64,000 nucleotides of DNA, from positions 1,158 through 65,157 of the forward strand of contig JBJDZI010000030.1 in the NCBI GenBank assembly GCA_051867925.1. The letters are read 5' to 3'. The position numbers and the translations under genes were made by a program. The stretch is from Eubacteriales bacterium (lineage in GTDB: Bacteria > Bacillota > Clostridia > Oscillospirales > CAG-272). This document shows positions 2,891-61,013 of the stretch, one piece after another; position 1 is the first letter of the stretch; the number at the start of each line of letters is the position of its first letter. Below the pieces are notes generated by a model. It was not told where the DNA came from and searched no databases. It saw nothing but the letters and a program-made list of their open reading frames with translations.

Positions 2891-3139
2891 TCGATCGCCT
2901 CCTCCATTTCAGATTTCGCATTCCTGCGATGATATCATTATAACAGGTTTTTCCTGAAAATCAATAACGCAATGGTTGAATTTTGGATAAATTTGCGGGT
3001 TTATAGGAAATTCGGTGTAATTCTATACTTCAATAGAACATAAAAGCTGTCGCAATAAGCACCATGTGATCATGCAACTGATATTCCGCGCCCCAAGGTG
3101 CACCGATAGAGTGTTTCTTTATGCAAATTCTTCGTTTTT

Positions 3140-3232
3140 AGGGAAGGGCGAAACCATCTCAGACGCCGAAGTATTCGTCCTCCCCTTCGCAGCCGCCGCA
3201 TAGCGGCGTCTGCTACCCCACTTCCTTGGCAC
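3140..3232 (+). repeat. Degenerate copy of the MITE internal module
   Basis: GGAAGGGCGAAACCATCTCAGACGCCGAAGT...ACCCCACTTCCTTGGC resembles the interiors of 43247-43409 and (reverse) 49880-50018; no clear TIRs. Confidence 0.6.
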
Positions 3233-3253
3233 TTGGCTCTGCGGAAACAAGTC

Positions 3254-3325
3254 GGGCGGCAATGACTTGCCGCCCTGTTCCGAAAGTTCTTGGAGGTTCG
3301 GAACCTTCTTAGGGGAAGGTTCCGA
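3254..3325 (-). repeat. REP-like multi-hairpin repeat downstream of rpoC
   Basis: GGAACCTT/AAGGTTCC hairpin, CCTCCAAGAACTT linker, GGGCGGCAA/TTGCCGCCC hairpin; same modules at 49831, 55218, 55351, 57343. Confidence 0.8.
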
Positions 3326-40374: not shown

Positions 40375-43170
40375 ATGAAACGCACAAAACCATTGGCATT
40401 CTTATTATCCGCTCTGCTTCTCGTCTCCTGCACCCACACCGAAGGGGCAGGGGTGGCTGAATCATCCTCCGTCACCACTGATGGGACAAGCACGCCCACT
40501 GTCTCGGACGAGGATATTCCTTCCACCACGCCGATCGGAGAGGAGCGCGATGCCGTTGCCAATCTGTTGGGCACCATCCATGACGGAAACGGTCTGCTCT
40601 GGTATCAGTTTGAGGAAAAAGCGGGCGCGACCAAGCTCTACTCTTCCCTGTCTCAAGCCAGAGACAGCATCGAGGTGAAGGCAACGCTTTCGCCCGATGA
40701 GGGCGTTGAGGGCGGAGCCATCTCTTTTGATGGTATCGACGATCGCGTGAAACTCAACAATGACTTTGCAAACGTCAGTCAGATCACCTCCGGCACCTTC
40801 CTGCATCCCTCCTTCACTACCCTTTCGATAGCCTTCTACTTTATGCCCGAACGGCTGGAGGGCGATCAGCTTCTGTACGAACAGGGCGATGAGGGCGCAG
40901 GGCTTGCCATCGGCATCGTGGGAGGGAAACTGACCGCCGCAGTCAGTGCAGGCAGATCTGCCACCGCCACCGGCAAAGCCAAAGTCGTGGGCGAATATGC
41001 TCTGCGTGCAGACGACCTGCAACAATGGATCCACGTTGCCGTCACCTTTGACGGAAACGAAAACGGCGGTACCGCTCGCCTGTTCGTCAACGGTGAGATG
41101 GTTGCCCAGCGGAGCACGCTGGGAGCAGTCATTCCCCAAACATTGGATGCTGCCGGGCTGGGCGCTGCCTACTACGGCACCAACGCGCTGGGACTTGCCG
41201 ATTCATATTTTGCAGGAAAGATGGACGATCTGCGGATCTACTCCACCGCCATCCAGCCAATGGGCAAACTGGAGGAGAATGTGGTCTATCTCCAGTCTGC
41301 CGCCGCCAAGAACGCTTATCTGAAGGGTTCTTTCGCGTCTCTGACCTGTGATTACAGCGTGGAGCCTGCTTTGCGGGGTTGGATCATTACCGACGGACTG
41401 GCGGGATCGGGCGTTTCTCTGCGGCTGACCGGCACCGATCAATACATCGTCGCGGAGAACGGCGGGCTGTCGGTACGAAAAATTTCCACCGATGCGGACA
41501 AAGCCGCCGCTACCTTTACGGCACACGAACCACTGGCAGTTCCCTCCTGGGGCGAGGCTACCCGCTCGGACTTCGTTTCTTTTCAGTCCGCTGACGGCAA
41601 ATACATCGCCGCCGTAGACGGTAAGGTATCGCTACTGGAGGCGGACATCGCGCCTTTGTCTGCCACCTTCAAGCAAACCGACGATCAAACCTCCGTCATC
41701 GACGGGCTGAAGGGTGCGGTCTACTATCCCTCCTACGCGCTGAACGCGCCGCAGTTCTGGAAATGGTACGATCATCAGCTGATCGATATGGAGATGGGCT
41801 ACGCCGAGCGGCTTGGCATCAACGCCTTCCGCATTTGGGTCAGCTACGAATATTGGCTGGAGGATCCCGATCACCTTGAAGCAGGATTCAAGGACTTTTT
41901 GGAACTTGCGGATGCCCACGGCATCAAGATCATGGTCTCTCTGTTCGAGGGATGCGGAGACGCTTACGATTACGACAGCGTGCATACTTGGAGCCGCGTA
42001 TACACCGGTAACTCCTGCGGCTGGGCGATTACTTCCCCCTGTGCCGCTATCTACAACAACAAATCCCGCTGGGACGAGCCGAAAGCCTTCGTCACGCGAT
42101 TCCTTCAGCTGTTCGGTGACGATGACAGACTGATGTCCATCGAACTGTACAACGAGCCTTGGGGCAACAACCGTGCCTCGCTGGCGAAGTATCTGTGCGA
42201 GTACGCAGTCACGATTCAAGGAAGCGTTCCGCTGATCGCAGGCACCGCCCCCGCCGATGCGTTCAATCTCAGAGACACCGTGAAACTGGGCATGGATCAG
42301 CTTCAGTATCACGATAACTTCCCCGGCAGTACTGCCGCATTCAAGAACAACGCAAACGGCAAGATTGAGCAAGCGCGGCTTGCCAATCTTCCCGTCTACT
42401 GCACGGAAGTACAATGGGTGGGCGGTCCTTCGGGCATCAACTATCCCGTCTATTCCAATCTTGCCCCTACCTGCAACGAGCTGATGGAGAGCGGAAAATG
42501 GGCACCCTTCTACTGGACGCTGATGGTTCACCCCTGCTATCTCAATTCTTACCGCAACAACTTCCAAATGTACAACGGTCTGGTCAACGAGGACGGAACG
42601 GTCAATTCTTTGGCGAGTGCAAAGGCATGGGCAAACGGTGTGATGGATTTTACCGAAAGCGCGGTTTCGCCTTATAGCAAGGGACACTATACCTATACCG
42701 TGGGCTTCTCCGAATCCTTTATGCAGGATAATCTTTATAAATGGAGCGCACTCTCGGGCACTTGGTCAACCACTGACGAGGTGCTGAACGGTGCAGGCGT
42801 GATCCTTGCCAATGACACGGAGTTTGGCTCTTTCACCGCCACCTTTGACGTGATTCTTAGTGGCGGCATTGGCGGTCTGGTGATAGGTTACGACGGCGGC
42901 TCTTATCTGGTCGCCCGCCTGTCCGACGAGAGCAATGTGATCGAACTGGTCTCGGTGGACGGCAGTCAAACTGCCGTCCTTGCAAGCGCGCCTTGTGTCA
43001 TTGACGCAGGCGGTCTGCAAAGCGTGACGGTGACGGCGAAGAACGGAAAACTGTCCCTTTCCTGCAATTGCACCGAGGTCAGCGTAGAGGTCGGTCTAAC
43101 GGTAGGACAGATCGGCTTTACTGCCGAGGGGAGCGCAAAGTTTGATAATCTGCGCGTGAATGCCCGGTAG
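40375..43170 (+). CDS. Multidomain lipoprotein: LamG-like + beta-trefoil-like + clan GH-A (GH5-like) catalytic domain
   Basis: LVSC lipobox; WIHVAVTFDG..LFVNG..FAGKMDDLRIY (LamG); GINAFRIW, LYNEP, YHDN, YCTE; C-terminal G.IGF..AKFDNL sandwich. Confidence 0.7.
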   Translation: MKRTKPLAFLLSALLLVSCTHTEGAGVAESSSVTTDGTSTPTVSDEDIPSTTPIGEERDAVANLLGTIHDGNGLLWYQFEEKAGATKLYSSLSQARDSIEVKATLSPDEGVEGGAISFDGIDDRVKLNNDFANVSQITSGTFLHPSFTTLSIAFYFMPERLEGDQLLYEQGDEGAGLAIGIVGGKLTAAVSAGRSATATGKAKVVGEYALRADDLQQWIHVAVTFDGNENGGTARLFVNGEMVAQRSTLGAVIPQTLDAAGLGAAYYGTNALGLADSYFAGKMDDLRIYSTAIQPMGKLEENVVYLQSAAAKNAYLKGSFASLTCDYSVEPALRGWIITDGLAGSGVSLRLTGTDQYIVAENGGLSVRKISTDADKAAATFTAHEPLAVPSWGEATRSDFVSFQSADGKYIAAVDGKVSLLEADIAPLSATFKQTDDQTSVIDGLKGAVYYPSYALNAPQFWKWYDHQLIDMEMGYAERLGINAFRIWVSYEYWLEDPDHLEAGFKDFLELADAHGIKIMVSLFEGCGDAYDYDSVHTWSRVYTGNSCGWAITSPCAAIYNNKSRWDEPKAFVTRFLQLFGDDDRLMSIELYNEPWGNNRASLAKYLCEYAVTIQGSVPLIAGTAPADAFNLRDTVKLGMDQLQYHDNFPGSTAAFKNNANGKIEQARLANLPVYCTEVQWVGGPSGINYPVYSNLAPTCNELMESGKWAPFYWTLMVHPCYLNSYRNNFQMYNGLVNEDGTVNSLASAKAWANGVMDFTESAVSPYSKGHYTYTVGFSESFMQDNLYKWSALSGTWSTTDEVLNGAGVILANDTEFGSFTATFDVILSGGIGGLVIGYDGGSYLVARLSDESNVIELVSVDGSQTAVLASAPCVIDAGGLQSVTVTAKNGKLSLSCNCTEVSVEVGLTVGQIGFTAEGSAKFDNLRVNAR

Positions 43171-43246
43171 TTAATCCAGCATCACTCTCAGTGAGTCTAT
43201 GCAAAAAATAAGCCTACAATCATCGCCCCGCTTCAGCGGGGCGATT

Positions 43247-43409
43247 CAGTTTGTCGAAAAAGCCCCATACCATACCGAGGGTAGGAGAAAACCATCGGAG
43301 TGCCGAAGTTTTCGTAGCAACCGCAACGCGGTTGCTACACTCCTCATCGAGCTCTCTACCCACTTCCTTGGCCGGCGGCACTCGAAATTTATAGTTTATC
43401 GACAGTCTG
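43247..43409. mobile_element. MITE-like element flanked by a duplicated 26-bp hairpin
   Basis: Ends CAGTTTGTCGAAAAA...TTTATCGACAGTCTG; direct repeats 43221-43246 and 43410-43435 (25/26 identical). Confidence 0.8.
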
Positions 43410-43473
43410 CATCGCCCCGCTTCGGCGGGGCGATTCCTTGTCTTCAACATTTGCGATTTTTTCGGCAAATCTC

Positions 43474-43502
43474 TTGCAATATGCTCGGAAATATGGTATA
43501 AT
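43474..43502 (+). promoter_or_regulatory. sigma-A-like promoter
   Basis: TTGCAA-N17-TATAAT upstream of the TetM-like gene. Confidence 0.7.
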
Positions 43503-43529
43503 ATTGATGATTATGGATCGGAGGTCGCT

Positions 43530-45456
43530 ATGGAGCCGCACAAGATTTTGAATCTCGCCGTTCTCGCTCACGTGGATGCGGGCAAAACTACCCTCACCGA
43601 GCAGTTTCTCTATCATAGCGGCTCTATCCGCCGCGCAGGGAGCGTGGACGATGGCTCTGCCCAGACCGACCGTGCGGATCAATCTGATCGACACGCCCGG
43701 TCACAGCGATTTTGCAGGAGAGGTGGAGCGGGCTCTGCTGGCTCCTGATGCGGCACTACTGATCGTCTCGGCGGTAGAGGGAGTGCAATCCCACACCGAG
43801 CGGCTGTGGAACGCTCTGCGAAAACTGCACATCCCCACCGTAATTTTCCTGAACAAAATCGACCGCGCAGGCAGTCGAACGAGGGACATCCTTGCCGAAC
43901 TGCCCGAGCGTCTATCCATGGGGGGCGTAACCCTTCTGCCGATGGTGGAGGCGATCCACGAGGGGCTGGACGGCTTTGCGATAGAGCCGCCCGCCGATCT
44001 TGTCGATCGGACGGTGGAAGCGGCGGCAGAACTTTCAGACGATATCGCACTCGCCTATCTGGAAGGGGAGCGCATCGATCCCGCTCTGCTGGAATCAACC
44101 CTTCGCCGTGGGGTTCGGGATCAAAAAATCGTTCCCGTCTACTGCGGCGCGGCGCAAAAAGGGCTGGGCGTTGCGGAGGTGCTGGGCGGATTGCTGCGCT
44201 TTCTGCCCCGCGCCTCCGAGCGAGTTACCGACGATCTGTCGGGGCTGGTATTTGCCATCGAGCATGACAAAACCATGGGCAAGATCGCCCATGTTCGTCT
44301 GTTCGGCGGAACGCTCGCCTCCCGCGATGGGCTGGCACTTGACGGCGGTGTGCTGAATCTGTCGGAGAACGGCGAGAAGATCTCCCAAATCCGCATGGCA
44401 GAAGGGGCGCGCTTTCGGGACAGCGGCATGGCAGGTGCAGGTGAGATCGCCGCGCTTTGCGGGCTGTCCACGGCAAAGGTCTATCAGACCATCGGCTCCT
44501 ATCGGCTTCCCGATCGGCTGAAACTGGCACTTCCCTATTTGCAGGTCAAGGCTACCCCCGAAACAGAAGAGCAGTTGCCCGCGCTGTTGAAGGCACTGAA
44601 CCAGCTCTCCGACGAAGACCCGCTCCTTGCCTGCCGTTTTTCCAAAGCGGAGCGCGAGATTTTGCTTTCCATCACAGGTAAGATTCAGCTGGAAGTGCTG
44701 ACCTCCCTGCTATGGGAACGGTATCGGCTTCGGGCAAACTTCTCCGCGCCCACCATCATTTACAAAGAAACGCCTACGAAGTCCGGTTACGGATTCGATG
44801 CCTATACTATGCCAAAGCCCTGCTGGGCGGTGGTGAAATTCCTCATCGAACCGCTTCCCAGGGGAAGCGGCGTGGTCTACAATAGTGGAAACGTGCCGAA
44901 CAACAAGCTGTTCTACCGCTACCAGTCCCACATCGAACAGTCGGTAAAGGCATCCCTCTCCCAAGGAATGCTGGGCTGGGAGGTTACCGATCTCAAGATC
45001 ACTCTGGCAGACGGCGAGCATCACACCATCCATACCCATCCGCTGGACTTTTTCGTCGCCACTCCCATGGCGCTGATGGACGGTCTGCGCAACACGGGAA
45101 CTACCCTGCTGGAGCCGATCCTTCGGGTCAAAATTCGCGCAGGCGAGGAGTTTTTGGGAAAGATTCTGGGCGACATTACCCGAATGCGCGGGGAATTCGA
45201 CAGTCCCGTGATTTCGGGCAGTGCCTTTACCTTGGAAGCCCTGATTCCCGCGGCAACCTCGCTGGAATATCCCCTCCGGCTGGCTTCTCTCACTCACGGA
45301 ACCGCGCTCTATTCCTCCGATCTGTCATACTACAAGCCCTGCCCCTTGGAACTGGGCGCGACGACGCCGAGACGCGGACCCAACCCTTTGGATCGCTCCA
45401 AGTGGATTCTCTATGCACGGGGCGCGATGACCGACGAAAACTATCAGTTGATGTAA
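43530..45456 (+). pseudogene. TetM/TetB(P)-like ribosomal-protection/EF-G-family GTPase, frameshifted
   Basis: [11 protein letters not shown]1 in the 43530 frame; DTPGH, NKIDR and LLEP in another frame from 43672; switch I segment missing at 43670-43672. Confidence 0.85.
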
Positions 45457-49823: not shown

Positions 49824-49830
49824 AATTAAT

Positions 49831-50088
49831 GGGGCTCTGCCCCAACCCCCGGCAGGAACCTTCTTGAAAGAAGGTTCCTCAGTCTGTCGATAAACTATAA
49901 ATTTAGAGTGTCGCCAGCCAAGGAATGGGTTGGAGGTCTGGAGGAAGGGGAAAAACTTCGGCGTATGAGATGGTTTTCCCCTTCCTCCAGTATTCTCGTT
50001 AACTTTTTCGACACTCTGAGGAACCTTCTCGAAAAAAGTTCCTGCACCTCCAAGAACTTCTGTAAAGGGCGGCAAATGCTTGCCGTCC
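49831..50088 (+). repeat. REP-like multi-hairpin repeat interrupted by a MITE
   Basis: GGGGC/GCCCC, GGAACCTT/AAGGTTCC, CCTCCAAGAACTT and GGGCGGCAA/TTGCCG modules. Confidence 0.8.
49880..50018. mobile_element. MITE-like element flanked by a duplicated ~26-bp hairpin
   Basis: Ends CAGTCTGTCGATAAA...TTTTTCGACACTCTG; imperfect direct repeats 49854-49879 and 50019-50043; interior matches 43247-43409 in reverse. Confidence 0.8.
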
Positions 50089-50097
50089 TGCTTTATC

Positions 50098-58520: not shown

Positions 58521-60650
58521 TTACAGGTGCAATACTCTGGATTTGATTTCCTTGGTCTTGCCCACGTTCCAGAAGTTTTCGCCCAGATAGCCACAGGTAC
58601 GGCGGGTAACATTCATCTTCCGCCGATCTTTGTTGTGACAGCAGGGGCATTCCCATTCGTTGTCGTCGTTGATCAGAATCTCTCCGTCGTAGCCGCATTC
58701 GTGGCAGTAATCGGACTTGGTATTGAATTCCGCGTACTGAATGTTATCGTAAATGAAGCGGACAACATCCTCCAGTGCCTCCAGATTGTGGCGCATATTG
58801 GGCACCTCAACGTAGGAGATGCAACCGCCGGTGGAGATCTTCTGGAACTGGCTCTCAAAGGTGAACTTGGCGAAGGCATCAATATTCTCGCGGACATCAA
58901 CATGGTAGGAATTGGTGTAGTAACCCTTGTCGGTGACGTCCTCGATGGTACCGAAACGCTCCTTGTCAATGCGGGCGAAACGGTAGCAGAGCGACTCGGC
59001 GGGCGTGCCGTAGAGTGCAAAGCCGATGTTGGTCTCGCGCTTCCAACGGTCGGTGGTGTCCCGCAGATGCTGCATCACCTTTACCGCAAACTCCTCGCCT
59101 GCGGGCTGCGTGTGGGATTCGCCGGTCATCAGTTTGGTCACTTCATAAAGACCGATGTAACCCAGCGAAATGCTGGAGTAACCGCCGAAGAGGTAACGGT
59201 CAATGGTCTCACCCTTGCCAAGCCGTGCGATGGCGCCGTATTGCCAATGCACGGGGGAAACGTCGGATCTCACGCCCATCAGCGCGTTGTGACGGCACAT
59301 CAGCGCTTCCTTGCAGAGTTCAAGGCGTTCATCAAATTCCTTCCAGAAGACGTCCATATTGCCCTTGGCAACGATGCCGATCTGCGGAAGATTGATGGAG
59401 ACAACGCCCTGATTGAAACGCCCCTCGAACTTGTAATTTCCGTTTTCGTCCTTCCAGGGAGAAAGGAAGGAGCGGCATCCCATGGGGGAGAAAACATTGC
59501 CTTCGTAATTCTCGCGCATTTTCTTTGCGGAGATATAGTCGGGGTACATCCGCTTGGCGGAGCATTTGACTGCCATCTTGGTCAGGTAGTCATACTCGCC
59601 GCCCTTGAGGCAGTTGTACTCGTCCAGCACGTAGACCAGTTTGGGGAAGGCAGGCGTGACATAGACGCCCTTCTCATTCTTGATGCCCTCGTAGCGTTGG
59701 CGCAGAACCTCCTCGATGATCATGGCGTTTTCCTTGACATACTCGTCATCAGCGGAGCGCAGATTGAGGAAGAGGGTTACGAAGGGAGACTGACCGTTGG
59801 TGGTCATCAGCGTATTGATCTGATACTGAATGGTCTGTACGCCGCTTCTCAGTTCGTCCCGCAAACGGTCGGAGACGATCTGCTCGATCTGCTGTTCGGT
59901 CAGAGAATCGCCGTGCTTTGCAATCAGATTGCTCTTGAACTTTTCGTAAGATTTACGCAGATATTTGCCCAGATGGCTGATATCCACCGACTGTCCGCCG
60001 TACTGGTTGGAGGCTACGCAGGCGATGATCTGCGTCACAATGGTGCAGGCGACCTGGAAGGATTTTGGGGACTCGATGAGTTTGCCGTTCATCACCGTGC
60101 CGTTCTCCAGCATATCCCCAATGTTGATCAGACAGCAGTTGAAAATGGGCTGTACAAAATAATCCGCATCGTGGAAGTGCAATACGCCGTCGTCGTGTGC
60201 CTTGGAAATATGTTCGGGCAGGAGCATACGGCGGGTCAGATCGCGGCTGACTTCGCCTGCGATGTAATCGCGCTGGGTTGCGGCAATGACGGTGTTCTTA
60301 TTGCTGTTCTCTTCCGCCAGTTCCTTATTGGTATTGCGCAGCAGGCTGAGGATGGATTCGTCGGTGGTATTGGCTTTGCGCACCAGCGCGCGATTATAGC
60401 GGTAGATGATATAAGCCTTTGCCAGCGTAAACTTTTCCGCTTCCATCAGTTTTTCTTCAACGATATCCTGAATATCTTCTACCAAAAAACGCTTGCGCTT
60501 TTTGGATTCAATGTAAGAAACGATCTCTTCGATCCCTTCTTCCGAGATGCGATCCTCCGGTTCAACGGCATCGTTGGCCTTGCGGATGGCGATCACGATC
60601 TTACTGCGGTCAAAATCAACGGTGGAGCCGTCGCGCTTGATAACTTTCAT
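58521..60650 (-). CDS. nrdD: Class III anaerobic ribonucleoside-triphosphate reductase
   Basis: ATP cone VIKRDG, FNCCL, MGCRSFL, TPAESL, CHECG/CPCC, RRTCGY glycyl site. Confidence 0.97.
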   Translation of the reverse strand: MKVIKRDGSTVDFDRSKIVIAIRKANDAVEPEDRISEEGIEEIVSYIESKKRKRFLVEDIQDIVEEKLMEAEKFTLAKAYIIYRYNRALVRKANTTDESILSLLRNTNKELAEENSNKNTVIAATQRDYIAGEVSRDLTRRMLLPEHISKAHDDGVLHFHDADYFVQPIFNCCLINIGDMLENGTVMNGKLIESPKSFQVACTIVTQIIACVASNQYGGQSVDISHLGKYLRKSYEKFKSNLIAKHGDSLTEQQIEQIVSDRLRDELRSGVQTIQYQINTLMTTNGQSPFVTLFLNLRSADDEYVKENAMIIEEVLRQRYEGIKNEKGVYVTPAFPKLVYVLDEYNCLKGGEYDYLTKMAVKCSAKRMYPDYISAKKMRENYEGNVFSPMGCRSFLSPWKDENGNYKFEGRFNQGVVSINLPQIGIVAKGNMDVFWKEFDERLELCKEALMCRHNALMGVRSDVSPVHWQYGAIARLGKGETIDRYLFGGYSSISLGYIGLYEVTKLMTGESHTQPAGEEFAVKVMQHLRDTTDRWKRETNIGFALYGTPAESLCYRFARIDKERFGTIEDVTDKGYYTNSYHVDVRENIDAFAKFTFESQFQKISTGGCISYVEVPNMRHNLEALEDVVRFIYDNIQYAEFNTKSDYCHECGYDGEILINDDNEWECPCCHNKDRRKMNVTRRTCGYLGENFWNVGKTKEIKSRVLHL

Positions 60651-60810: not shown

Positions 60811-60865
60811 ATCATACCACAATATATTGTGCTTGTCAATGGGCAAATACCACAATATATTGTGT
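60811..60865 (-). promoter_or_regulatory. nrdD promoter with tandem NrdR boxes
   Basis: TTGACA-N17-TATGAT (60839 to 60811); CACAATATATTGTG palindromes in boxes 60817-60832 (within the spacer) and 60850-60865. Confidence 0.9.
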
Positions 60866-60906
60866 TCGTTTTTGTATACAACGATGAAGTCGCTCTTTTT
60901 GGCGTC

Positions 60907-60933
60907 AAAAATCCCCGCCGAAGCGGGGATTTT
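60907..60933 (-). terminator. Probable terminator of the GH43 gene
   Basis: AAAATCCCCGC-CGAA-GCGGGGATTTT hairpin. Confidence 0.7.
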
Positions 60934-60966
60934 ACGATAAACTACTCCAAAAGCAGTACCTAAATT

Positions 60967-61013
60967 CCACAATATGTTGTATCGTTTTTTCTGCCCGATA
61001 CAATATGTTGTGG
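60967..61013. promoter_or_regulatory. Second pair of NrdR-like boxes
   Basis: CCACAATATGTTGTAT (60967-60982) and ATACAATATGTTGTGG (60998-61013), 31 bp apart. Confidence 0.75.

Follow-up and report, generated by a model that had tools for sequence, protein, structure and literature searches.

Insertion at hairpins: described systems

YPAL/RU-2 of Yersinia are miniature elements that make long duplications at terminator-like targets. Their length is given as ~168 bp in the accessible text of two papers (PMC3184786, PMC2267715). IS1630 of Mycoplasma fermentans, a member of the IS30 family (Calcutt et al. 1999), is described in excerpts of PMC2853133 and PMC3317919 as duplicating inverted repeats of 19-26 bp. 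Within the IS1182 family, palindrome-targeting members are attributed to Siguier et al. 2015, as cited in PMC4923244 and PMC5678879, and available sections of the same two papers report that IS1272 and TnSha1 of staphylococci use hairpins or terminators with little sequence conservation as targets. In Fig. 13 of PMC5678879, pathway b proposes a cruciform whose attack at the 5' feet would duplicate the whole stem-loop; by its own account, in the part available, that paper gives the principle without detailed data for IS1182. IS1182-like ends are also carried by MITEPye1 of Paracoccus yeei, an intergenic element which, according to the accessible part of PMC11578231, is presumed to be mobilised in trans, has 4-bp repeats and is present in 1-3 copies per chromosome.

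Two element copies in the window

The window, the whole 64,000-nucleotide stretch analysed here, contains two copies of a short element flanked by hairpins. The features of copy 1 are as follows:

43247..43409, + strand, MITE copy 1, 163 bp; missing in other strains
43247..43262, + strand, left 16-bp terminal inverted repeat of copy 1; fits the IS1182 left-end consensus CAGnnTGTCGAAAAAG
43394..43409, - strand, right 16-bp terminal inverted repeat of copy 1; fits the IS1182 right-end consensus CAGnCTGTCGAnAAAC
43275..43373 (approximate limits), + strand, hairpin-rich core of copy 1; common to resident copies without terminal repeats and unlike IS1182 interiors
43221..43246, no strand, left target-site duplication of copy 1; hairpin with a 10-bp stem
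43410..43435, no strand, right target-site duplication of copy 1; terminator-like hairpin 3' of the gene ending at 43170

A sequence-only reading of the window had described this 163-bp element with imperfect terminal inverted repeats between hairpin direct repeats, and its coordinates, ends and repeats all proved to be as claimed. In the window sequence the termini are CAGTTTGTCGAAAAA and CAGACTGTCGATAAA. The flanking repeats are 26 bp each with one mismatch between them, and both form 10-bp hairpins (DNA z = -6.2 and -5.7; 0 of 200 shuffles as good). Run X1 carries copy 1 with two identical flanking repeats; it is near-identical to the window and may be the window's source data. Directly behind copy 1, at 43529-45456 (+), lies a gene for an EF-G/Tet(M)-like GTPase (434 bits against NF012153, whose cut-off is 775), with a good sigma-70-type promoter ahead of it at 43474-43502. 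The GTPase copy in the window looks frameshifted near 43670; this is probably an assembly slip, as the contigs of five runs (X1, X5, X14, X15 and X18) are ~65 bases longer than the window there.

Copy 2 lies within a repeat that is itself hairpin-rich, and a further hairpin that has the core of target 1 is found at higher coordinates:

49880..50018, - strand, MITE copy 2, 139 bp; missing in four of four runs compared
49854..49879, no strand, left duplication of copy 2; hairpin with an 11-bp stem
50019..50043, no strand, right diverged duplication of copy 2; 25 bp
49830..50090 (approximate limits), no strand, resident modular hairpin repeat; its middle hairpin is copy 2's target and its terminal hairpin GGGCGGCAA..TTGCCG is the commonest target
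60908..60933, no strand, unoccupied terminator-like hairpin; has target 1's 16-bp core and lies outside the element

The second family member had been said to be flanked by a duplicated hairpin of similar length. The duplication is present, and the left flank is a 26-bp hairpin (z -4.3), but the 25-bp right repeat has diverged from it by two substitutions and one deletion and now folds poorly (z -1.2). The 16-bp core of target 1 is found unoccupied at 60913-60928, as had been noted, but this adds little: the 16-mer occurs exactly twice in the genome, here at the centre of a terminator-like hairpin of 11 bp, which is a possible free target. Around this hairpin, repeated ACAATATATTGTG / ACAATATGTTGT motifs are seen at 60815-60870 and 60965-61012, upstream of nrdD (58521-60650); we take these to resemble NrdR boxes.

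Empty sites in other strains

Empty sites were compared in eight of the 19 listed runs. Copy 1 is missing in X5 and X19 through a 189-base skip (163+26); in X5 a single contig reads 41500-43220 and then directly 43410-43673. Copy 2 is missing through a 165-base skip (139+26) in X5, X14, X17 and X6, that is, in all four runs compared, from three studies. X14 and X15 are also without copy 1 and have a different 208-base replacement, and were therefore excluded from the precise empty sites for that copy. Since the skipped length is in both cases that of the element and one of its flanking repeats, only one hairpin stood at the site before insertion. A site with two hairpins already in place would have spoken against duplication; the empty alleles at both window sites have one.

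Family size and distribution

The genome containing the window (G000; 2.17 Mb, 132 contigs, 85% complete) has 280 matches to the end motif, against 13-16 in three shuffled genomes. With 42 unclassified matches left out of the counts, 238 were classified (116 left, 122 right), and 45 end pairs delimit elements of 128-165 bp with 16-bp imperfect terminal inverted repeats, 22 of them 140 bp long. The element explains why many contigs of this assembly end where they do: 123 of 264 contig ends break within it, and most unpaired ends run off contigs; it also marks strain differences. Within the genus, nine of 19 other genomes contain the family; outside the genus, none of 21 does. Its nature as a MITE is confirmed: it is short, gene-less and intergenic, has terminal inverted repeats and a high copy number (~120), duplicates its target and has empty orthologous sites. 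At four G000 positions (C85:3084, C76:7626, C70:14209 and C131:8616) eroded or variant ends are seen, some with hairpin repeats; these copies may date from an earlier wave of the element.

Target duplications and hairpin targeting

Duplications were counted in 44 complete copies with both flanks, one of the 45 having been dropped for a flank that was too short. The sequence-only reading rested on two copies; direct repeats of 19-41 bp occur in 36 of the 44 (15 perfect; 17 of 24 bp) and no long direct repeat is found in eight. Repeat centre and palindrome axis coincide exactly in 31 of 36 cases, and in the other five they are no more than half a base apart. In 27 of the 36 MITE repeats the 5' end falls 0-1 nt beyond the stem. 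Where a palindrome extends into A/T tails, the repeat stops within the extension (7/36 MITE and 10/14 IS cases), so that the "entire palindrome" said to be duplicated means the G+C-rich stem. Repeat length and hairpin length show a moderate correlation (rho 0.53, n = 36, many related targets).

A hairpin adjoins 223 of 237 element ends against 21 of 1000 random positions, a lenient control since random positions are mostly coding. Insertion sites lie within a long stop-free frame in 6/36 cases compared with 264/300 for random positions, leaving 30/36 outside, and a T-rich tail is present at 29 of the 36. One palindrome family, GGCAA-n-TTGCC, adjoins 150 of the 237 ends, the other 87 adjoining unrelated sequences; this family has 197 long-stem copies, 123 of them beside an element end. 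The base just outside the end is T at 155/225 MITE ends and at 44/50 and 43/50 IS ends. It had been proposed that the transposase reads hairpin structure rather than sequence. Structure does appear to be the main determinant, but the claim was overstated, because one family takes so many of the ends and T is favoured outside them; targeting looks mainly structural, yet with a sequence component. The commonest target is used in both orientations (on the tail side, the right end 44 times and the left end 29; on the opposite side, the right end 34 times and the left end 43), and eight back-to-back element pairs share a single hairpin. Loop inversion between the two repeats was considered as a repair signature and rejected, being found in only 2/21 mismatched pairs. 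In each of these two pairs, C32:3878 and C87:17126 of G000, the loops of the two flanking repeats are reverse complements of each other, as in hairpin micro-inversion.

IS1182 ends and a candidate parent

No transposase was found in the G000 assembly (85% complete and broken at repeats) with PF05598, PF13751 and PF01797 profiles or by tblastn with two IS1182 proteins (best E 0.061). Across the bacterial family, PF05598 matched in 39 of the 150 further genomes, and among 30 such loci examined, matching or related ends occur in L013, L019, L014 and L009. The first three score above the NF033551 IS1182 cut-off (408-431 vs 270 bits) and retain invariant D145, D293 and E420 plus conserved cysteines; we assign these three acidic residues as the presumed DDE triad. 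The ends of L013 match those of the MITE at 18/18 positions, and its transposase shares 45.8% identity with a protein annotated as ISEfa7-like.

A larger IS set was drawn from the best 79 of 551 confirmed metagenome stretches plus five genome loci, giving 58 paired elements, 50 of them with both flanks. MITE and IS1182 ends agree over 16 bp, left with left and right with right (52-element consensus), and position 16, G vs C, separates the left from the right end in both. Full-length IS1182 elements have palindromic repeats of 21-30 bp in 14/50 cases. Most of the 36 without a long repeat still have a hairpin beside them (33/36 left, 30/36 right), and the left flank of one element is the right flank of another; such flanks fit chimeric assembly across a 1.6-kb repeat, or recombination. 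The IS1182 targets have no evident common sequence. On finished Bacillaceae plasmids, perfect hairpin repeats of 30 and 19 bp flank two of three elements (Sutcliffiella, Bacillus sp. S3); no paired ends were found for the ISEfa7 plasmid copy.

Searching the genus with L013 gave matches in four of 19 other genomes, and the full-length IS1182 copies there end in CAGACTGAAGACAAA, unlike the MITE. MITE copy C84:4187 of G000 carries this genus-type IS1182 end on its left, so that two IS1182 groups contributed ends. An exact 28-base pattern, too strict for the parent, gave one match over the genome contigs (L039, a copy with a hairpin repeat). A search of the viral contigs gave no match. Transposase-bearing elements with the same terminal inverted repeats thus do exist as full-length IS1182 elements. 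The suggested IS1182 parentage is upheld as regards the ends and the hairpin duplication, both common to IS1182 of the same bacterial family, but the exact mobilising element was not found in the genome and genus searched. An IS1182-family transposase probably mobilises the MITE.

The interior and a resident repeat

The similarity between MITE and IS stops near base 16-18, and a comparison of 45 interiors with the 58 IS elements gave no BLAST hits (E <= 0.05), a set outside which the true parent may lie. An internal-deletion derivative of IS1182 was accordingly rejected, its interior having no homology to any of the 58. The ~100-bp core also occurs on its own, one example lying in the window:

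3090..3325 (approximate limits), + strand, resident repeat copy lacking terminal repeats; made up of the core and an unoccupied GGGCGGCAA..TTGCCGCCC hairpin

This modular resident hairpin repeat, ~290 bp long with interchangeable small hairpin modules, is seen here and at ~50 other places in G000 and has no Rfam match. At the gathering score Rfam gave nothing in the window, hairpin matches being sub-threshold only. Consensus folding of the core alignment yielded no structure for either strand, probably because the alignment is gappy and mosaic.

Away from contig ends the core is found 54 times without ends, 42 times with both and 19 times with one (in a stricter set, 41, 42 and 16, respectively). 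End-less cores are more diverged (mean identity 0.73 vs 0.81; nearest neighbour 0.88 vs 0.98), and a long repeat flanks 2/41 of them compared with 35/42 two-ended copies. The two classes are intermixed on a weak tree (109 columns, 83 rows, mosaic copies), which indicates mixing, not direction. The GGCAA hairpin, the commonest target, directly continues 26 of the 54 end-less copies. What is new here, as far as such comparisons can tell, is an interior that appears not to be IS-derived and that is common to ~40-54 more diverged end-less copies of a resident repeat, the very repeat that supplies the commonest target.

Several end-less copies show eroded end-like sequence, 30/54 have a conserved upstream motif resembling the first bases of the end, and the copies in genome G013 (72% complete; 17 matches to the resident repeat, no exact end motif) resemble the right subterminal stretch of the MITE. 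These three observations count against simple capture. Capture of the resident repeat is nevertheless rather probable and decay of older MITE waves quite possible; both may have happened. In related genomes the MITE ends enclose hardly any sequence or, it appears, different hairpin modules. Locus L128 (G005:C91:10404-10461) is a 58-bp near-perfect palindrome formed by two ends and a short hairpin, a minimal element between two different hairpins; at L139 and L142 (G010) the end motif stands beside unrelated REP-like hairpin modules with unrelated interiors, which suggests that the ends carry varied cargo. A fuller proposal, which we put forward tentatively, is that IS1182 ends captured a resident structured-repeat core (possibly a small-RNA gene family) more than once and now spread it into hairpins of the same family. 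Since each jump duplicates the target, such a system would amplify itself, would now be the main chromosomal repeat, and its ends would serve as a general carrier.

Mechanism and alternative explanations

Insertion, the copying of one hairpin to two, cuts that are symmetric about the palindrome axis, a variable repeat length and ends common to IS1182 with the same behaviour are shown by the data above. Very probably, an IS1182-type MITE inserts at hairpins and the whole hairpin is copied to both sides. A DDE transposase supplied in trans would join the 3' ends of the element to the 5' feet of both cruciform arms, as in pathway b of PMC5678879. The two cut sites would lie diagonally across the four-way junction, at a fixed spatial distance, with repeat length following arm length, and gap filling would then copy the stem-loop. 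Every insertion would double the target, so that further copies could land on the same hairpin, and back-to-back arrays would thereby be explained. Less surely, the interior would come from the resident hairpin repeat, and recombination via the common core would swap ends and modules. Counting against this account are the negative transposase searches of the 85%-complete G000, the different ends of the full-length IS1182 copies in the genus, the eight MITEs and 36 IS elements lacking a long repeat, the only moderate correlation of repeat with hairpin length, and the ISEfa7 copy in which no paired ends were found.

The transposase might instead recognise palindromes through the symmetry of their double-stranded sequence, or as hairpins that single strands form during replication or transcription, with no cruciform involved. 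The dominance of one palindrome family at 150/237 ends, the T preference outside MITE and IS ends and the frequent cuts within A/T stem extensions all agree with this; however, 87/237 ends lie at unrelated sequences, no common sequence is evident among the IS targets, the favoured family is just a numerous one, and a fixed duplex footprint would hardly yield symmetric cuts 19-41 bp apart, which together make this reading improbable. That the element spreads when resident repeats undergo homologous recombination or gene conversion, or through a REP-type nuclease, with the IS-like ends as passengers, is very unlikely. It would account for the interior in 41-54 end-less copies, for the 16-19 single-ended copies and for the transposase searches of G000 that found nothing, but it is largely refuted by the empty alleles, which are precise and lie at a hairpin that is unique (43221). 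The confinement of long repeats mostly to two-ended copies (35/42 vs 2/41) also stands against it, as does the lack of PF01797 (Y1/RAYT) matches in the incomplete genome G000; recombination accounts for the mosaics, not for the insertions. That a collapsed repeat gave rise to the duplications during assembly is scarcely credible, even with 123/264 contig ends breaking inside the element and chimeric joins likely among the repeat-less copies: mis-joining deletes matching repeats and does not create them, the empty alleles have exactly the expected length, and the same duplication is found on finished plasmids. Replacement of the stem-loop, as in IS1272, was also rejected, empty alleles having one hairpin and filled alleles two.

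Comparison with known systems

Beyond PMC5678879, the accessible parts of the literature searched hold no direct statement of whole-hairpin duplication by IS1182, and those of PMC10969869, PMC3184786, PMC2267715 and PMC3196728 offer nothing further on the novelty of hairpin duplication. No description of this MITE family was found in the literature searched, the key reviews and ISfinder being outside that search. The nearest system is the IS1182 clade around ISEfa7, which has the same 16-bp ends, palindromic targets and whole-hairpin duplication; its members are ~1.57 kb long, whereas the MITE is 128-165 bp, has no transposase and has an unrelated interior. IS1272 and TnSha1 likewise target hairpins and terminators, but IS1272, in the sections available, deletes or replaces the hairpin without duplication, while the MITE duplicates it. 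IS1630 differs in being autonomous and in its transposase family. MITEPye1 is also an intergenic MITE with IS1182-like ends, presumed to be mobilised in trans, but it has 4-bp repeats and 1-3 copies per chromosome, and hairpin duplication is undescribed in the accessible part of PMC11578231.

The family suggests a transposase whose insertions fall between genes, with a copy of the terminator left on each side. Its ~120 natural insertions in a single genome, together with empty alleles that are precise and a matched transposase clade, make the cruciform-foot model directly testable. Whole-hairpin duplication is already published, going by the excerpts on IS1630 (1999) and the cruciform model of PMC5678879, and this MITE is a clean new example of it, not a new principle.
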